A stretch of 64,000 nucleotides of DNA from NCBI GenBank assembly GCA_048938855.1, contig JBHLLT010000006.1:41986-105985 (forward strand), written 5' to 3'. This document shows, in pieces, positions 1,501-46,814 of this stretch. This DNA is from Promethearchaeota archaeon. GTDB lineage: Archaea; Asgardarchaeota; Lokiarchaeia; Sigyniarchaeales; SOKP01. Below the pieces are notes generated by a model. It was not told where the DNA came from and ran no database searches. It saw nothing but the letters and a program-made list of their open reading frames with translations. How positions within the stretch are numbered: the first letter of the stretch is position 1; each line of letters starts with the position of its first letter. The position numbers and the translations under genes are program-made.

Positions 1501-1607
1501 TGGCGGGCTATAGGGGAATTGAACCCCCGACCTTTCTTTTTAAGGGAGAGCTTCCCATAAATGTCAGGTTAAAAGCCTGCTGCGCTACCTGCCTGCGCCA
1601 ATAGCCC
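1501..1607 (-). tRNA. tRNA-Lys(UUU) with a ~30-nt non-canonical intron (about 1534-1563, near position 43/44); CCA encoded
   Basis: GGGCTAT/ATAGCCC acceptor stem, GCGC D-stem, CAGG-CTTTTAA-CCTG anticodon arm, GGGGG-TTCAATT-CCCCT T arm. Removing 30 nt gives a 77-nt tRNA. Confidence 0.9.
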
Positions 1608-2959: not shown

Positions 2960-3061
2960 GCCTCTGTAGCTTAGTGGTTATAGCAACATTTTTAGTCATT
3001 TTGAAAAAAATGCTAGAGATTCGTAATCTGTAGATCGGGGGTTCAATTCCCCCCAGAGGCT
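2960..3061 (+). tRNA. tRNA-Thr(CGU) with a 29-nt intron at position 28/29 (2988-3016)
   Basis: GCCTCTG/CAGAGGC acceptor stem; spliced anticodon arm ACAGA-TTCGTAA-TCTGT; clean BHB with an AGCA/TGCT central helix and ACA and AGA bulges. Confidence 0.93.
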
Positions 3062-4309: not shown

Positions 4310-4482
4310 GCAGGAGTTGCCAAAATAATACGTAGTCCTACTTTTATGGCTAAGCTTGGTCTACGGCGCTAGAATTTTACGTAATAGTACGTATATGGCG
4401 TAACTGAGGCTCTAGTGACATAGGTCTTCGAAGGATCTACTTCTTCGTCCTAAATTCGTGGGTTCGAATCCCACCTCCTGCA
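4310..4482 (+). tRNA. tRNA-Leu(GAG) with three introns (about 4324-4353, 4373-4402 and about 4431-4458)
   Basis: GCAGGAG/CTCCTGC acceptor stem; spliced CTAGA-CTGAGGC-TCTAG anticodon arm; GAC-ATAG-GTC variable arm; GTGGG-TTCGAAT-CCCAC T arm. 173 nt minus 88 nt of introns leaves 85 nt. Intron 2 has a clear BHB (CGCT/GGCG helix, AGA and TAA bulges). Confidence 0.88.
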
Positions 4483-8900: not shown

Positions 8901-9439
8901 TCTGCTTCAGTCGCTTCATATTTAGGAATGTTTGATTTTTTTCTAACGTAATCTGCAATTAATACACATAGGGCTGCTGTTGTTCCTCCAGCTGCTCTAA
9001 TTGGTCCCGCAAAATACAGAGATAAATACTTTCTACCAAAACTATCTGTTCGAATTAAAATCTTTGAAATACCTTCAAGGGGAGCACTCACGACACCCAT
9101 AGTTTTTATAGCTAATCCAATTCTTATTGATCTATCAACTCGGGCTTCTATAGAGTCAAAATTTCCAATTTTTTCTTCCAAAATGTCAGCAACCACCTTA
9201 AAAACAAGTTCATCTTCTGTTAACCCTTGTCTTTTTAATGTTCTAATTACATCTGCAACACCTTTTGGACCCACAAGTTTTTCAACTCTTCCAGCTAAAT
9301 CTTTTGCTTGAGGAGATTCAACTTCTAATTCAGGATCAAATCCTTTTTCACGTGCACGTTCTGCAATTGAATAACATCTATCAACTTGCATTTGAATTGA
9401 ATTAAAGTATGATTCCATTGCTTTACTTATATTTACCAT
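5918..9439 (-). CDS. polC: DNA polymerase D large subunit DP2
   Basis: AGPIRAAGGT, RYGRSRNTG, catalytic KRRNCDGDED and Cys4 zinc fingers; no intein seen. Confidence 0.98.
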   Translation of the reverse strand: MVNISKAMESYFNSIQMQVDRCYSIAERAREKGFDPELEVESPQAKDLAGRVEKLVGPKGVADVIRTLKRQGLTEDELVFKVVADILEEKIGNFDSIEARVDRSIRIGLAIKTMGVVSAPLEGISKILIRTDSFGRKYLSLYFAGPIRAAGGTTAALCVLIADYVRKKSNIPKYEATEAEIGRYVEEVKLYDRNVHLQYPSSNKEIRYAVSHLPIEINGDSTEDEEVSAFRDLPRIETNHIRGGACLVLNDGILLKAPKLLKIAKVMNLDGWNWLVELKKIAQTQEKMEKEKQNELKKEIKIPPNSKYVADIIAGRPVFSHPSVIGGHRIRYGRSRNTGLAAGGIHPASMVILDEFIAIGTQLRIERPGKSTSVCPVDSIEPPIVKLRNGDVIKVTNSIKAKQIFSDIKKVLFLGDLLFGYGEFTENNHILVPSGYVEEWWALDLEKAINNTEIVDKKITSFIENPLENIPTEVEAIDISRKYEVPLHPFYLDFWGNLSLEELTLLRNELIKNFSESTQRIIFNYEKPIKKILEKAFIPHKIKDNKIFLSLKRSFIYKKIFALEEKKLIEVDQDDDVFTYFFKLSSVKIKNKAPYFMGSRMGRPEKSERKSMKGIHSLFPLSSVVGNSRLFEKAMGYSTRKNGINDSIPKKKSSYDFANKNNVVETGKVQIDVCRKKCVNCGTSSIFNICHNCGGHTELQKICTRCKSLYPTFEEICPKCQESLKSSSEAKFNIRKYVNSALRSLDIIFPQKFKGIIGLTNEYKVPEPIEKGLLRAKNDVLVYKTAEIRYDATDIPLSHFKPNEIGTPIEKLRELGYDKDIDKKPLIDGNQILELKVQDIILSNDCAKYFIKVANFLDDELELFYKQRRFYNISTRDDLLGHLAVGLAPHTSAGIIGRIIGFTPARAIYAHPFWHAAKRRNCDGDEDGVMLLLDPLLNFSRHYLPSKIGGRMDATLVIGTKIDPNEIDVESHNLDTLNRYPLEFYEATERYSSPSEIESLMCLVKSRLGTPEQYENLGFNIPTTNINEGPTTTAYKLYESMDDKIEAQLHLAKIIKAVEAKKVAEKILTTHFNPDILGNLRKFTVQSFRCVKCNEKFRRPPLTNSGKCPKCGNRIILTVNRGGIEKYIPRALKLCTDFNLDDYTKQRMELIEEYVESLTNNPKIKQHKLVDFF

Positions 9440-15688: not shown

Positions 15689-17161
15689 TTATCCTTTTAC
15701 TACTCCTACAGGAACTAATCTTACTATTTTTTCAACGATTTCAAGATCGTGGCTCACCTGAACAACTTGATCTATGTCTTTATATGCACCGGGTGCCTCT
15801 TCGGCAATCACTTTCATCGAAGCTGCTCGTACCATAATTCCTTGTTTACTTAAACTATCTTTAACACGTTCTCCCCAATATTTTTTTGTAGCTTTAGCTC
15901 TTGACATTACTCTTCCCGAACCATGCGCAGTGGAACCAAATGATAAATCCATCGCATTCTCCTTCCCAACACATAGATAAGAAGCAGACCCCATAGTTCC
16001 TGGAATTAATACTGGTTGTCCAATAGATTTATATTTTTGTGGTATATCAGGATGATTTGGCGGAAATGCTCTCGTAGCACCCTTTCTATGAACGTTTAAC
16101 TTCATTTTTTTACCATCAATTTCATGTTCTTCAATTTTTAAGATATTGTGGCAAACTCCATAAATAAGGTGTAAATCTAAAGCATCTATATCTCTTTGAA
16201 AGGTTTGCTGAAATGATTCTCTTAACCAATGTGTGATTAATTGACGGTTAGTAAATCCAAAATTAGCTGCACATGCCATTTGTTTTAGATAATTTTGTGC
16301 CTCAGGAGTATTTGCAGGTACGCACGCTAATTCTCTATCTGGTACTTTTATATTATATTGTTTCATAGCCTGCTCAATATTGCGTAAAGAATCTGAACAT
16401 ACTTGATGTCCAAGGGCTCTGCTTCCTGTATGAATCATAACAGTAATTTGATTCTTATCATGAATTCCCAACTTTTCAGCGATACTTTTATTATAAATTT
16501 CATCGACTTTTTGGATTTCTAAAAAATGGTTTCCACTACCTAATGAACCAAGCTGTTTTATTGCACGCTGTTTTGCTTTCAATGAAACCAGTTTAGCATC
16601 TGCATCCATTAAACATCCATTTTCCTCTAAATGATTAATGTCTTCTTCAATAGCATAACCATTATCTAATGCCCATTTTACACCATTATTTAAAACATCA
16701 TCTAACTCTGAATAACTAATATTAAGTTTGCCCTTCGAACCCAATCCTGAGGGGATATTTGTAAATATTCTATCCAATAAATTGGGAAGAACATTCTTAA
16801 TATCATTAAGAAATAAATTAGATCTTAATAATCTTACACCACAATTAATATCATATCCTACTCCTCCAGGAGATATCATTCCTGTATCTGCATCTGTTCC
16901 AGCAACACCACCAATACAGAATCCATATCCTTGGTGGGCATCTGAAAGAGCAATCGCATGTTTTTGTATTCCGGGTAAACAAGCAACATTACAAATCTGA
17001 TCTAATGTCCGATCCAACTTTATTTTCTCCAAAATATAATCATTAGCATAAATTTTTACAGGAACTCTCATCTGAAATTTTTCGATATTTCCTTTAATCC
17101 GCGACATTAATGTTTTTGGAGGAATTTCATAGATATTGTTATCAATTTTATTGACATTCAT
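15689..17161 (-). CDS. rtcB: tRNA-splicing ligase RtcB
   Basis: DAHQGYGF, GYDINCGVR, GSGNHFLE, HRKGATRA, STAHGSGR, EEAPGAYK. Confidence 0.98.
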   Translation of the reverse strand: MNVNKIDNNIYEIPPKTLMSRIKGNIEKFQMRVPVKIYANDYILEKIKLDRTLDQICNVACLPGIQKHAIALSDAHQGYGFCIGGVAGTDADTGMISPGGVGYDINCGVRLLRSNLFLNDIKNVLPNLLDRIFTNIPSGLGSKGKLNISYSELDDVLNNGVKWALDNGYAIEEDINHLEENGCLMDADAKLVSLKAKQRAIKQLGSLGSGNHFLEIQKVDEIYNKSIAEKLGIHDKNQITVMIHTGSRALGHQVCSDSLRNIEQAMKQYNIKVPDRELACVPANTPEAQNYLKQMACAANFGFTNRQLITHWLRESFQQTFQRDIDALDLHLIYGVCHNILKIEEHEIDGKKMKLNVHRKGATRAFPPNHPDIPQKYKSIGQPVLIPGTMGSASYLCVGKENAMDLSFGSTAHGSGRVMSRAKATKKYWGERVKDSLSKQGIMVRAASMKVIAEEAPGAYKDIDQVVQVSHDLEIVEKIVRLVPVGVVKG

Positions 17162-18668: not shown

Positions 18669-20429
18669 CTATTCGCGATAGGTTGGATAAAAGTATAGAT
18701 TTCTCATACTATTATATGGGAATCCTTTCAAGGTAGCTGCGTGTACAAAATAGAGTTTGTCATATTCTAAAGGCATATGATAAGCTTGTACGTCGATAAT
18801 ATAACCTTGAAGTTGTTCATATAAGGCATATCTCGTAGCAGTATCAGTTTCTGCAGCAGCCTTCGCTAGAAGATTCTGTAAATGATGATCATTAATTCTA
18901 GCAAAGTTAGAAGCGGAGGCATTGTTAACTAATGGATCAATCATGTTGAAGGTTTCAAAATAATCAGGACCCCATCCGACATAATAGATGTGAAGTCTTT
19001 CGGGATGAAGTTGACCCAGCCTAATAAATTGATCCCAAGTTAATATTTGGGGTATAACATCGATTCCAATTAAATCCATATCCTCCGTGAACCGTTGGAT
19101 AAGAAGTTCCATGAAGTGACTAGCTACATTGTGTCGGAAATTCCATTGATTGTTTGAGAAGTTTCCTGCACCAGCAGTTGGCACAAATTGCGCTGCTGTC
19201 CACTGAGCCTCATCACCACCTGGAGTGAATACATCTCCCACTTGAGAGCCAACCTGCCAACCAACTCCAAAACCCATAGATTGCAATATCGTTCTGGCTT
19301 TTGGGATATCATAACTGGCACCTGTGGTTGAATAATTATGCGCAGGAAAGCCAGGAGGAACTAATGAGTTAGCTTTCACAGTTCTATCTTGATCAATTTC
19401 TTGATTGAGATATGTATAATTAAACGCGTTTGAAATTGCCTTTCTCCAGGTTCGGTTTATGACTTCAGAGTTAAATGCAATATACCAATAAATAGAACCA
19501 TTAATATAATCATGAACTCCATCTCCAGTTACCGTAATATCTGGATCTGCTACAAAATCAGGTTTGAGTGAAGCAATACCTTGACCTAGGTAATCAATAT
19601 CCCCAGCCAACATTGCATTATTGGCAGTGACAGCATCTCTATAAAATACAAAAACAATCTGGTCCCAATAAGCACCAGTTCTCCAGTATCGCTCCCATCG
19701 GGCAAATCTAATCTCTGAATTAGGAATGTATCTCACTAATTTGAAAGGTCCAGTTCCAATAGCGAGATCTTGACCAAGACTTAGCATTCTATACTTTGGA
19801 GTAGATGTATGACCGACAATTGAACTTGCTGTATAAGCTAATAAACCCTCGCAAGGGGCAAAGGCTCCGGTCAAATAGAGTCTGACTGTTAATGGATCAG
19901 ATGCTTTATGTGCATTCCACCAGACTCTGCTGGCTGCAGTATCAAAGATTGCTGTTCCATTACCAAATTTGTAAATTGAATGTGGAAAAGCCTGAGTTGT
20001 GTTATCGGGTAATGTTCCTGTCGAATTGCCAAAATAATTAATTCTTTCGAATGTAAAAATAACATCTTCTCCTGTTAGTTTTTGACCATCATGGAAATAC
20101 ACATCATCTCTTAATTTAAACTCAACTATTGTTTCAGTAGGCCAACTCCATGATTCAGCAAGTCTAGGAATAATTGGGAAACTTGGGTCTGATAAATCAG
20201 TAGCAATTAGAGGTTCAACAACCTGATCAAGCATATTATTTGATACACTATCCCAAGTATCCAGAGGATCCATAGTGACAGGATTAGATGTTGTGGCAAC
20301 TTTAAGGACTTCTCCTTGTACCGGAGGTGAAACAACGGTCAACATAGCTAAGATAACGTTTCCAACACCAGAAGCAGCTAAAACTACTGCTAGGATGATT
20401 ATCGCTAAATTTTTTTTCTCCATTTCCAT
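18669..20429 (-). CDS. ABC transporter substrate-binding protein, family 5 (peptide/nickel)
   Basis: N-terminal membrane anchor; PRLAESW, FKLRDDVYFHDG, GTGPFKL, GWGPDY. Confidence 0.92.
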   Translation of the reverse strand: MEMEKKNLAIIILAVVLAASGVGNVILAMLTVVSPPVQGEVLKVATTSNPVTMDPLDTWDSVSNNMLDQVVEPLIATDLSDPSFPIIPRLAESWSWPTETIVEFKLRDDVYFHDGQKLTGEDVIFTFERINYFGNSTGTLPDNTTQAFPHSIYKFGNGTAIFDTAASRVWWNAHKASDPLTVRLYLTGAFAPCEGLLAYTASSIVGHTSTPKYRMLSLGQDLAIGTGPFKLVRYIPNSEIRFARWERYWRTGAYWDQIVFVFYRDAVTANNAMLAGDIDYLGQGIASLKPDFVADPDITVTGDGVHDYINGSIYWYIAFNSEVINRTWRKAISNAFNYTYLNQEIDQDRTVKANSLVPPGFPAHNYSTTGASYDIPKARTILQSMGFGVGWQVGSQVGDVFTPGGDEAQWTAAQFVPTAGAGNFSNNQWNFRHNVASHFMELLIQRFTEDMDLIGIDVIPQILTWDQFIRLGQLHPERLHIYYVGWGPDYFETFNMIDPLVNNASASNFARINDHHLQNLLAKAAAETDTATRYALYEQLQGYIIDVQAYHMPLEYDKLYFVHAATLKGFPYNSMRNLYFYPTYRE

Positions 20430-23210: not shown

Positions 23211-24358
23211 AAGTAGTAAAATTGGCAAAAACTAGAGGAGAATCTTACTATATTAAAGGAAGAAATATTCCTAAAGGATGTAAGTATTGTCTAAAAGGAT
23301 CTAAAGTGGTTTTATTTTTAAATGGTATATGCCAAAGACCAGAACATTGTTTTTGGTATTGTCCAATATCAGAAGAGAGAAAAGGTAAAGAGATAACATT
23401 TGCTGATGAAATTGAAATCCAAAGTAAAGAGGAATTACTCAAAGAAATTGAAAAAATAAGTGCCCAGGGTATGAGTATCACAGGGGGAGAACCACTTTCA
23501 GAATTAAACCTCGAGAAAACGATTGAGTATATTGAATATGTTAAAAAAGAGAAAGGAAAAAAGTTTCACGTCCACTTGTATACAAACGGTATCAATTTTA
23601 ATGAAAATATTGCCAATAGACTTTCTGTTGCGGGATTGGATGAAATAAGATTTCATCCTGCGGAAAAACATTGGAAAAACATTAATTGGGCCTTAAAAAA
23701 AAATATTAGCGTAGGCGCTGAAGTTCCAGTAATTCCAGGAAATGAATATAGGAGAAATCTTGAGGAATTTGTTTATTATTTGGACAACATTGGTGTTGAC
23801 TTTATCAATTTAAATGAGTTTGAATATTGCTTTCCTAACAGTCAATTTCTTAAAGAACGAGGTTTCAAATTAAAAAAAAATTCAATAGCTGCTGTTATCA
23901 ATAGTCAAGAATCAGCTCTTAGTATAATCCGTAAAATAGGAATCAAGGTCAATATACAAATGCATTTCTGTCCAATAAGAGCCAAAGATTATCATCAATT
24001 AAAGAATAGATATATTCGGAGAGCTAAGAATATTAGATTACCTTTTGAAGTAATCACTGACGAAGGACTCTTATTATATGCTCAAATTGAAGGAGAAAAA
24101 AAAGATCTGGATAAGTTTTATGAAAGTGTGGTATTCAACCTAAAAATTAATGAAAATCAACTCAGCAGAGAAGAAGATCATATTAAAATGCCCTTCTATA
24201 TCTCAATTGAAGATCGAATCGTGGCGTTAATAAAGCAGTATAAATTAAAAGGTTTTATAATTGAAGCTACTCCTTTTAGACGTTTAAAATATAGGCAAAT
24301 TACAGAAAAAACTCCCTTAGAAGTATTTAAGAATGAATATGGATTTAATAGAAATTAA
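23207..24358 (+). CDS. Radical SAM protein (conserved archaeal, uncharacterised)
   Basis: GIC...HCFWYCP cluster motif, ITGGEP, HLYTNG, LDEIRFHP. Confidence 0.88.
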   Translation: MKVVKLAKTRGESYYIKGRNIPKGCKYCLKGSKVVLFLNGICQRPEHCFWYCPISEERKGKEITFADEIEIQSKEELLKEIEKISAQGMSITGGEPLSELNLEKTIEYIEYVKKEKGKKFHVHLYTNGINFNENIANRLSVAGLDEIRFHPAEKHWKNINWALKKNISVGAEVPVIPGNEYRRNLEEFVYYLDNIGVDFINLNEFEYCFPNSQFLKERGFKLKKNSIAAVINSQESALSIIRKIGIKVNIQMHFCPIRAKDYHQLKNRYIRRAKNIRLPFEVITDEGLLLYAQIEGEKKDLDKFYESVVFNLKINENQLSREEDHIKMPFYISIEDRIVALIKQYKLKGFIIEATPFRRLKYRQITEKTPLEVFKNEYGFNRN

Positions 24359-45106: not shown

Positions 45107-46108
45107 TTGACGATTGAAAAGATAATTCAAAAGATTGATGGTTTATTAAAAAAAGCTAATTACGAGACATTAGCACTGGGTAGTTTTGCTACTACAAAAA
45201 GTAAATTCTGTTTTGATCTTTTAGCTAGAAAGGACGATTTAATATTTAGTGTTAAAATTTTTCCTAATATCGATAACTTGAATCAAGATATAATTCGAGA
45301 TATTAAATCTCTATCCTTAATCCTCAAATCAAAACCTTTATTGATTGGAGTCAGAAATCGATATCAAAAATTAGAAGATAACACGATTTATGTAAGAGAA
45401 GATTTACCCTTCATAACACTCAATACATTTGAGAATATACTCAATGATAATTACCCCCATATCTTAGCAAGAAGAGGAGGTGGAATTGTATTTTTAGATG
45501 GTACATTAATGAAAATTCTGAGAGAAAAGCATTCAATAACAAGAAAGGAATTATCAGAAGTCTTAGGAGTGACTAAAAGAACTATTTGTTCATATGAAAA
45601 CGAATCTATGAGACCTTCTGAGAAAATCGCTAAAAAAATATTAGAAATCTTAGATAATAATGCATTATGTAAAAAAATCAACGTTTTTAGCTGGAGTATA
45701 CATAATGAGATAGAAGAAAATGAAATATTTGAAGAACAAGAATTAAGCCATTTTGAATCCCATGTTCAGGATATAATCAAGGATATTGGACTTTCTTCAT
45801 ATTGGTATAAAAAAGGTTCAGTACCTTTCAAATTATCATTATACTCTCACTCTGATGAAAAAAGATTAAATGGATTTTATCCTCTATTTTCCGGTATAAC
45901 AGAAGAACAAGGTAAAATTAAAGAAATGAGCTTTCAATGTTTAAGAATGTTTACAGATTTATTTCATAAAACATCTCTCTTTATTATAGATAATGATATT
46001 AAAATTCCTGAACCATTTAAGAAAATTAAAATTCCAATAATCAAAATTAAAAACCTTGAAGAAGTAGATAATGAGCAAGAATTCATCGAACTCATTCAAG
46101 ATTCATGA
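45107..46108 (+). CDS. Conserved archaeal HTH transcriptional regulator
   Basis: CFDLLAR, NIDNL, ARRGG, central HTH ELSEVLGVTKRTICSYE. Confidence 0.85.
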   Translation: MTIEKIIQKIDGLLKKANYETLALGSFATTKSKFCFDLLARKDDLIFSVKIFPNIDNLNQDIIRDIKSLSLILKSKPLLIGVRNRYQKLEDNTIYVREDLPFITLNTFENILNDNYPHILARRGGGIVFLDGTLMKILREKHSITRKELSEVLGVTKRTICSYENESMRPSEKIAKKILEILDNNALCKKINVFSWSIHNEIEENEIFEEQELSHFESHVQDIIKDIGLSSYWYKKGSVPFKLSLYSHSDEKRLNGFYPLFSGITEEQGKIKEMSFQCLRMFTDLFHKTSLFIIDNDIKIPEPFKKIKIPIIKIKNLEEVDNEQEFIELIQDS

Positions 46109-46814
46109 AGATGAATCCGACCTAATATGTGGGATAGACGAGGCGGGTAGAATCTAATTCTTTTCGAATTATATGTTAAAAGGCTCTGTCTTAGGCCCAA
46201 TGGTTTTATGCGGAATTTGCTTCAAAAAATCTAAAATTGAGTTATTATCAGAAATAGGAGTAAAGGATTCTAAGAAACTGTCACCTAAAAGAAGAAGTGA
46301 ATTAGCAGAAATCTTACAAAATTATTGCTTCTCTATTAAAATCATTATTATTAATCCTCAGGAAATTGATGAGAGAGAGAGTAAAAAAATTACAATGAAT
46401 AGACTTGAAGAATTGAAAATGGCAGAGATCATTAATGAATTGAAACCAGATGTAATATATATTGATGCTGCTGATGTAAATGAAACGAGATTTGGAGATT
46501 CCATAAAAAAATTACTAATATATTCTCCCAGAAAAATAATATCTAAACATAAAGCTGATGACCTCTATCCAATAGTTTCAGCAGGATCTATAATGGCTAA
46601 ATGTAAAAGAGATGCTATGATTGAAGAACTACACAAAAAATACGGAAATTTTGGCTCAGGATACCCTTCAGATGTTAAAACAACTCAATTCCTAAGAGAT
46701 TTTGTGAAAAAACACAAAAAAGCTCCAATAATCGCAAGAAAATCGTGGGATACCACCAAAAAAATAATAAATGAAGAGGTCTCTTCAAAAAAAATAACTG
46801 ATTACCTTAATTAA
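46071..46814 (+). CDS. rnhB: Ribonuclease HII interrupted by a 30-nt candidate intron: join(46071..46150,46181..46814)
   Basis: Exon 1 MSKNSSNSFKIHEDESDLICGIDEAG(R) is in frame with exon 2 GSVLGPMV...GVKDSKKL...IDAAD...HKADD.YPIVSAGSIMAK...GSGYPSD; the insertion contains TAA at 46155. Confidence 0.92.
46151..46180 (+). other. Candidate BHB-type mRNA intron in rnhB
   Basis: GGT AG|AATCTAATTCTTTTCGAATTATATGTTAAA|A GGC; internal hairpin TAATTC/GAATTA; AGA and AAA 3-nt bulges offset by 4 bp. Confidence 0.8.

Follow-up and report, generated by a model that had tools for sequence, protein, structure and literature searches.

A BHB intron is known from the cbf5 pre-mRNA of Crenarchaeota (Watanabe 2002; Yokobori 2009, as cited in PMC7714728 and PMC5829648), and this is the only coding-region case that we found in the literature on archaeal BHB introns. 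Asgard archaea carry an (alpha-beta)2 splicing endonuclease with a loop linked to broad specificity (PMC5829648). Their tRNA introns have a median length of 22-23 nt, and a census of these introns, in which families were tested across isotypes, found no general copying route, with 1.5% of introns in families of at least 80% identity versus 0.6% for shuffles (10.64898/2026.10.13.758758). Here we describe a predicted 30-nt BHB intron in the ribonuclease HII gene (rnhB) of an Asgard genus, and compare it with the second of three introns in a tRNA-Leu(GAG) gene, with which an earlier sequence-only reading had grouped it.

The DNA examined, referred to here as the window, is a stretch of 64,000 nt from a 3.95-Mb archaeal assembly, roughly 30% G+C. 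ARAGORN made no tRNA call in the raw window, and Rfam found two intron-bearing tRNAs (Thr and Lys) and missed tRNA-Leu. With the inserts cut out of the genes, ARAGORN calls tRNA-Lys, tRNA-Thr and tRNA-Leu. Including rnhB, there are six interruptions in the window, measuring 30 nt (tRNA-Lys), 29 nt (tRNA-Thr), 30, 30 and 28 nt (tRNA-Leu introns 1, 2 and 3) and 30 nt (rnhB), in agreement with the range of 28-30 nt given by the sequence-only reading. The boundaries of the tRNA-Lys intron are uncertain by a few bases, and two of its four central-helix pairs form at the boundary chosen. The features under discussion are the following.

1533 to 1562, minus strand: intron of tRNA-Lys(TTT), 30 nt; gene at 1504-1607; Rfam tRNA match; tRNA-Lys when spliced
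2988 to 3016, plus strand: intron of tRNA-Thr(CGT), 29 nt; gene at 2960-3061; Rfam tRNA match; central helix AGCA/UGCU with 4/4 pairs; tRNA-Thr when spliced
4310 to 4482, plus strand: tRNA-Leu(GAG) gene, 173 nt, with three introns; called as tRNA-Leu(gag) by ARAGORN only with the three inserts removed, and not when unspliced
4324 to 4353, plus strand: tRNA-Leu intron 1, 30 nt, in the D-loop after mature nucleotide 14; apparently a copy of intron 2
4373 to 4402, plus strand: tRNA-Leu intron 2, 30 nt, in the anticodon stem (Sprinzl 30/31); follows TAG; central helix CGCU/GGCG
4427 to 4454, plus strand: tRNA-Leu intron 3, 28 nt, in the variable arm; boundaries taken from relatives without intron 3; perfect central helix UAGG/CCUA
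15692 to 16999, minus strand: RtcB RNA ligase gene, the likely exon-joining enzyme (Pfam PF01139, E 3.1e-170, 566.9 bits)
46071 to 46150, plus strand: rnhB exon 1, from the in-frame ATG at 46071 to GIDEAGR, its last bases being the AG of the Arg codon
46151 to 46180, plus strand: predicted rnhB BHB intron, 30 nt, with an in-frame TAA; same site in relatives; paired structure
46181 to 46814, plus strand: rnhB exon 2, from GSVLGP through the stop codon; Pfam RNase_HII

The rnhB insert lies between the Arg and Gly codons of the RNase HII motif, and its removal restores the reading GIDEAGR-GSVLGP. Exon 2 matches Pfam RNase_HII (PF01351; E 4.4e-41) over profile positions 9-199 of 199, and the missing positions 1-8 correspond to the motif encoded by exon 1. 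The gene thus combines the ribonuclease HII profile match with the N-terminal D-E-A-G-R-G motif, which is split across the exons and rejoined by removal of 30 nt. The start codon of exon 1 is kept in relatives, where the protein begins M[M/T]KKNSLNS. This ATG lies 38 nt within the 3' end of an upstream gene for an HTH-domain protein (45107-46108), read in a different frame (overlap 46071-46108); the overlap and the N-terminal peptide are kept in most relatives, while in two relatives the start codon is instead a TTG or GTG just ahead of the motif. Two other readings of rnhB, a frameshift and a fusion to the gene upstream, were considered and dropped, since exon 1 has a conserved in-frame ATG at 46071.

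Comparison across the genus shows the insert at one site in 24 of 24 loci, and it is absent from all six loci of two other (sister) families. Its length is 30 nt in 23 of the 24 genomes and 29 nt in one, and that one copy would shift the frame if translated. Contigs from four independent metagenome studies contain the insert at the DNA level, and none of them has a joint that skips it. Metagenome contigs carry variants at 46145 (G>T), 46154 (C>T) and 46172 (T>C). In a tree of RNase HII the genus forms one clade (support 95/90), every member of which has the rnhB intron. The genomes lacking tRNA-Leu intron 2 fall in the two basal lineages of this tree, yet one genome there carries it, and both introns reach back to the base of the genus or near it.

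As a BHB intron we took a structure with a central helix of 4 bp, 3-nt bulges on both sides and on opposite strands, and cleavage after the second bulge base. In the geometry used, the exon contributes four helix bases and then two bulge bases up to the 5' cut; the partners of the four helix bases are intron positions L-5 to L-2, and the second bulge consists of the last two intron bases and the first exon base. Across 23 rnhB sequences, 92.6% of cells in this structure are paired, versus 24-44% in slid registers. The central helix has 93.5% of its cells paired, and the flanking helices h (exon-exon) and h' (intron-intron) have 95% and 90%. Four pairs change on both sides across relatives. At columns 20/47, the pair of the helix closest to the 5' bulge, the combinations UG, UA, CG and GC are all seen, and within these variants a synonymous exon change is matched by a change in the intron. 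For rnhB in this genome, the central helix is a weak one (three of four pairs, with one G.A mismatch and three G-U pairs), and the minimum-energy fold favours another register. The G>T variant at 46145 converts the G.A mismatch into a U-A pair that is common to most relatives. The central helix of tRNA-Leu intron 2 has 4/4 pairs here and 100% of cells paired over 21 distinct sequences of the genus, flanked by a helix h of 3 bp and an outer h' with 90% of cells paired. Both inserts form a hairpin when folded alone.

The genome also encodes the enzymes expected to act on such structures. Besides RtcB, there are two genes with an EndA catalytic domain (PF01974; 100.9 and 71.5 bits), which is consistent with an (alpha-beta)2 endonuclease of broad specificity made of two paralogues. 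In both precursors the central helix would be formed between four exon bases and intron positions 25-28, the cleavage sites would lie in two 3-nt bulges that each begin with A, and the intron would be closed by an AU-rich hairpin whose stem has about 9 bp and whose loop has 4-5 nt. The splicing endonuclease would cut each intron from its RNA, and RtcB would rejoin the exons. The predicted products appear functional in both cases, i.e. a sequence called as tRNA-Leu(gag) and a continuous GIDEAGR-GSVLGP. The rnhB insert and tRNA-Leu intron 2 are therefore most likely genuine BHB introns, and we infer from their structure and conservation that cleavage and ligation take place in the cell.

The tRNA-Leu(GAG) gene was compared in 29 genomes of the genus. 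Its length varies from 115 to 207 nt, and its introns occupy six or more positions (two D-loop types, a double D-loop insert, the 30/31 site, the variable arm and the T-loop), with presence and absence differing between close genomes. Intron 2 occurs in 24 of the 29 genomes, with 22 copies of 30 nt, one of 31 and one of 32; its apical hairpin has been replaced and its pairing register has changed while 30 nt was kept in 22/24. Intron 1 occurs in 7 of the 29 genomes and is therefore taken to be the copy. It is identical to intron 2 at 21 of 30 positions here and at 21-28 of 30 in the six other carrier genomes, three of which reach 25, 27 and 28. The site of intron 1, GCC-AA, resembles the donor site of intron 2, GCU-AG, as read from the sequence, and the GGC in the copied 3' segment pairs with both. 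From these comparisons intron 1 clearly appears to have been copied from intron 2 within the same gene, which makes it a clear exception to the published census without a copying route. Loop variants common to introns 1 and 2 within single genomes hint at occasional gene conversion, which 30 nt cannot prove. A 30-nt intron of tRNA-Asp GTC (C49:257373-257477) and the 30-nt second intron of tRNA-Gln TTG (C28:8218-8350) share a T-arm position and are identical at 18 of 30 bases, the second-highest pair in our census of introns; they may be relatives across isotypes.

The likeness that the sequence-only reading saw between the rnhB insert and tRNA-Leu intron 2 exists as described. The two 30-mers are as quoted, at 46151-46180 and, following TAG, at 4373-4402; both start AAT after TAG, have TATATG at intron positions 20-25 and contain a hairpin. 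Ungapped, they agree at 14 of 30 positions (47%), where dinucleotide shuffles give a mean of 10.9 +/- 2.2 and P(>=14) = 0.13. Within a set of 26 introns collected from this genome (the rnhB intron and 25 in tRNA genes; ten of the 26 are 30 nt), four other tRNA introns match the rnhB insert as well as or better than intron 2 does: among the 30-nt introns, those of Thr-TGT, Ala-TGC and Gln each give 14 matches and tRNA-Leu intron 1 gives 15. Across the genus the two intron families have a mean identity of 13.0/30, and their consensus sequences agree at 13/30. Local alignment of both introns including exon flanks gives P of about 0.1, and a shared run of at least 6 bases at the same offset is found in 8 of the 325 intron pairs. 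The rnhB 30-mer is unique within the window, 11,104 30-mers of the genome match it at 18/30 or more, and the genome holds no paralogues of it or of tRNA-Leu intron 2 beyond a reversed-query control. When 22 rnhB introns and their structure were turned into a covariance model and this was run with filters off at E <= 10, it found its own locus with 62.7 bits and no tRNA intron in the window. There is a faint excess in end-anchored similarity, where tRNA-Leu introns 1 and 2 rank first for rnhB (12/20 positions, in the top 3% of the 325 pairs). Copied introns would be expected to show about 70-80% identity or more between sites, above shuffles; the pair of tRNA-Leu introns 1 and 2, our positive control, behaves in this way, and the pair of rnhB and intron 2 does not. 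The observation itself is thus confirmed in part, and the sequence comparisons do not point to copying between the rnhB intron and tRNA-Leu intron 2.

Most of what the two introns have in common is also common in this genome. In the set of 26, each bulge begins with A in 21, and the intron itself ends with A in 18, begins with A in 14 and has T as its third base in 17. Going by these frequencies, about three of the 26 introns should start with AAT, and three do, two of which are paralogues. TATATG is found in 2 of 22 copies of intron 2, the family majority being TTTATG, and it is therefore a recent, derived state in that intron and was not inherited. Moreover, the 3' likeness is for the most part a consequence of the 5' likeness: the AU at intron positions 2-3 is paired with the AU that precedes the central helix, and the G at intron position 25 has as its partner the exon U located three bases ahead of the cut. 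The common features (30 nt, the AAU start, UAUG before the central helix and A at the 3' end) would accordingly be expected from the geometry, the consensus of the genome and its 70% A+T.

A motif of this kind arises easily by chance in such DNA. A motif-only scan of the whole genome returned equal counts for the BHB geometry and for a mirror-geometry control at every length, so that in this AT-rich genome the motif by itself cannot serve for a census. Filtering the candidates for merged open reading frames left 128,761 on one strand, far too many by chance; in the window this filter recovered rnhB among about 190 candidates. Two further BHB-like motifs are not introns: the best-looking candidate besides rnhB, at 23628-23668 (plus strand), lies within an intact ORF of 384 aa, and a covariance-model match at 9260-9295 (minus strand) lies within an intact ORF of 1188 aa. 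They illustrate how readily chance makes the motif in AT-rich sequence.

The lengths in the set of 26 are 22 (two introns, both of Ser tRNAs), 27, 28 (four), 29, 30 (ten), 31 (three), 32 (three), 33 and 47 nt. This tRNA census is partial: a tRNA with an intron in the T-arm or acceptor stem escapes it, and BHB pairing helped in the choice of intron boundaries. Two further genes carry extra sequence, of about 38 nt in Glu-CTC and of 38 nt in Gly-TCC, the latter probably two introns of about 19 nt. Candidate mRNA introns elsewhere in the genome include one of 30 nt in uppS and some of 36-37 nt, such as the first intron of rpl11 (37 nt). The uppS insert (C16, near 18885-18915) splits a D-G-N-R-R motif and has a perfect 8-bp hairpin; at the boundaries that restore the frame the 4-bp central helix does not form, so that it would be a relaxed motif.

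Three other explanations have to be weighed against the reading of two separate BHB introns. That the rnhB insert stays in the message, the gene being a pseudogene or its expression relying on stop read-through, ribosome bypass or an internal start codon, we regard as hardly credible. It would gain from the ATG at 46173-46175 within the insert, which opens an ORF of 213 aa, the one that an ORF finder gives as rnhB. That ATG is not conserved in relatives, however, and its product lacks the catalytic Asp and Glu of the motif. Apart from the insert, the ORF is unbroken in 23 of 24 genomes, at protein identities as low as 62%, and the remaining locus has a TGA that adjoins masked bases. Also against an unspliced insert are its in-frame stop, which is TAA, TGA or TAG depending on the genome, the 29-nt copy and the covariation of exon and intron. 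Bypass was rejected, as the take-off and landing codons do not match. The size ruler imposed by a shared endonuclease, also proposed in the sequence-only reading, is supported in a weak form. A 30-nt length mode is real and there is some sign that length is held: 10 of the 26 introns are exactly 30 nt and 23 are within 27-33 nt, the rnhB intron and tRNA-Leu intron 2 keep 30 nt in 23/24 and 22/24 genomes despite turnover of the stem and a change of register, the two present the same substrate geometry, and the median is shorter Asgard-wide (10.64898/2026.10.13.758758). A strict ruler, by which the endonuclease or ligase of the genus would measure introns and process only those of about 30 nt, is very unlikely, since this genome also has introns of 22 and 47 nt, the suggested ones of about 19 and about 38 nt and the candidate mRNA introns of 36-37 nt, and since the Leu gene carries others of about 32-36 nt within the genus. 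Archaeal EndA, moreover, reads the two bulges and the central helix, not the length of the intron hairpin. The 30-nt mode, kept through sequence turnover, is nevertheless a testable hint of a constraint on that hairpin.

The main claim of the sequence-only reading was that one family of mini-introns had spread between tRNA and mRNA. In its most defensible form, the rnhB and tRNA-Leu introns would be old, diverged members of one proliferating family, copied wherever the 3' segment finds a partner, with length, A-first bulges and AU-rich stem bases as the surviving signature and the rest overwritten by compensatory change. Copying does occur in this lineage, as tRNA-Leu introns 1 and 2 testify with their 21-28/30 identity and their similar target and donor sites. 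Intron lengths peak at 30 nt, the highest end-similarity of rnhB is to those same two introns, and intron 2 has swapped its apical hairpin at a constant 30 nt, so that similarity can decay quickly; its sequence turnover is fast enough to have erased an old relationship to the rnhB intron. A statistical excess of similarity was found in none of the tests, however, TATATG is derived in intron 2, and the Asgard census lacks a general copying route (1.5% vs 0.6% in shuffles; 10.64898/2026.10.13.758758). The sequence-only reading had itself set the bar for the claim, a likeness beyond what AT-rich sequence under BHB constraints would give, and the likeness found does not exceed it; with agreement at 14/30 (P 0.13), no covariance-model match and no paralogues, a family spread between tRNA and mRNA is unsupported, and we consider its diverged form improbable. 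We would give similarly little weight to its widest version, in which all the roughly 30-nt BHB introns of the genus, in tRNA and mRNA, descend from one self-copying founder that inserts where 3-4 exon bases pair with its 3' segment, the copying of intron 2 into intron 1 being recent and the rnhB intron old and overwritten save for length and bulge consensus. The rnhB intron and tRNA-Leu intron 2 are most likely two separate BHB introns served by the same machinery, which resemble each other through shared geometry, the consensus of the genome and 70% A+T, and not through copying. Had the link between tRNA and mRNA introns held, it would have been a first trace of how endonuclease-spliced introns enter protein genes, and it does not hold. 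The copying of intron 2 into intron 1 is a clear and datable case, which shows what real relatedness looks like and gives a concrete rule for the target site.

Set beside known systems, the tRNA-Leu(GAG) gene agrees with the non-canonical tRNA introns of Asgard archaea (10.64898/2026.10.13.758758) in having three introns at BHB sites of the D-loop, anticodon stem and variable arm, and in their frequent gain and loss between close genomes. It differs in that the census reports a median of 22-23 nt and no general copying, whereas here the mode is 30 nt and there is one clear copy within a gene. The transposing tRNA introns of Thermoproteales (Sugahara 2008; Fujishima 2010, to the extent that they are described in 10.64898/2026.10.13.758758, where they are cited) are paralleled by tRNA-Leu introns 1 and 2, with 70-93% identity at two sites. 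In contrast to that system, the tRNA-Leu copy was made within one gene and not across isotypes, and rnhB and intron 2, at 47%, fall short of such identity.

The rnhB intron has its counterparts among mRNAs. The BHB intron in the 5' UTR of HVO_1309 of Haloferax volcanii (PMC7714728) likewise makes an mRNA a substrate of the tRNA splicing endonuclease, but it lies in an untranslated leader and has been confirmed in vivo and in vitro, whereas the predicted rnhB intron lies in the reading frame. The cbf5 intron, as far as the papers that cite it describe it, is closer, being a short BHB intron inside the coding region of a housekeeping gene in organisms with a hetero-oligomeric endonuclease, presumably cut by EndA and joined by a tRNA ligase. 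Here the gene is rnhB, the phylum is Asgard, and the intron, whose splicing is predicted, sits within the DEAGRG catalytic motif and is fixed across a genus with covariation. The comparative evidence, from 24 genomes and from covariation, points to an RNase HII of an Asgard genus with a BHB intron inside its catalytic motif, and the rnhB intron as predicted adds a member to the small class of archaeal BHB introns in coding regions.
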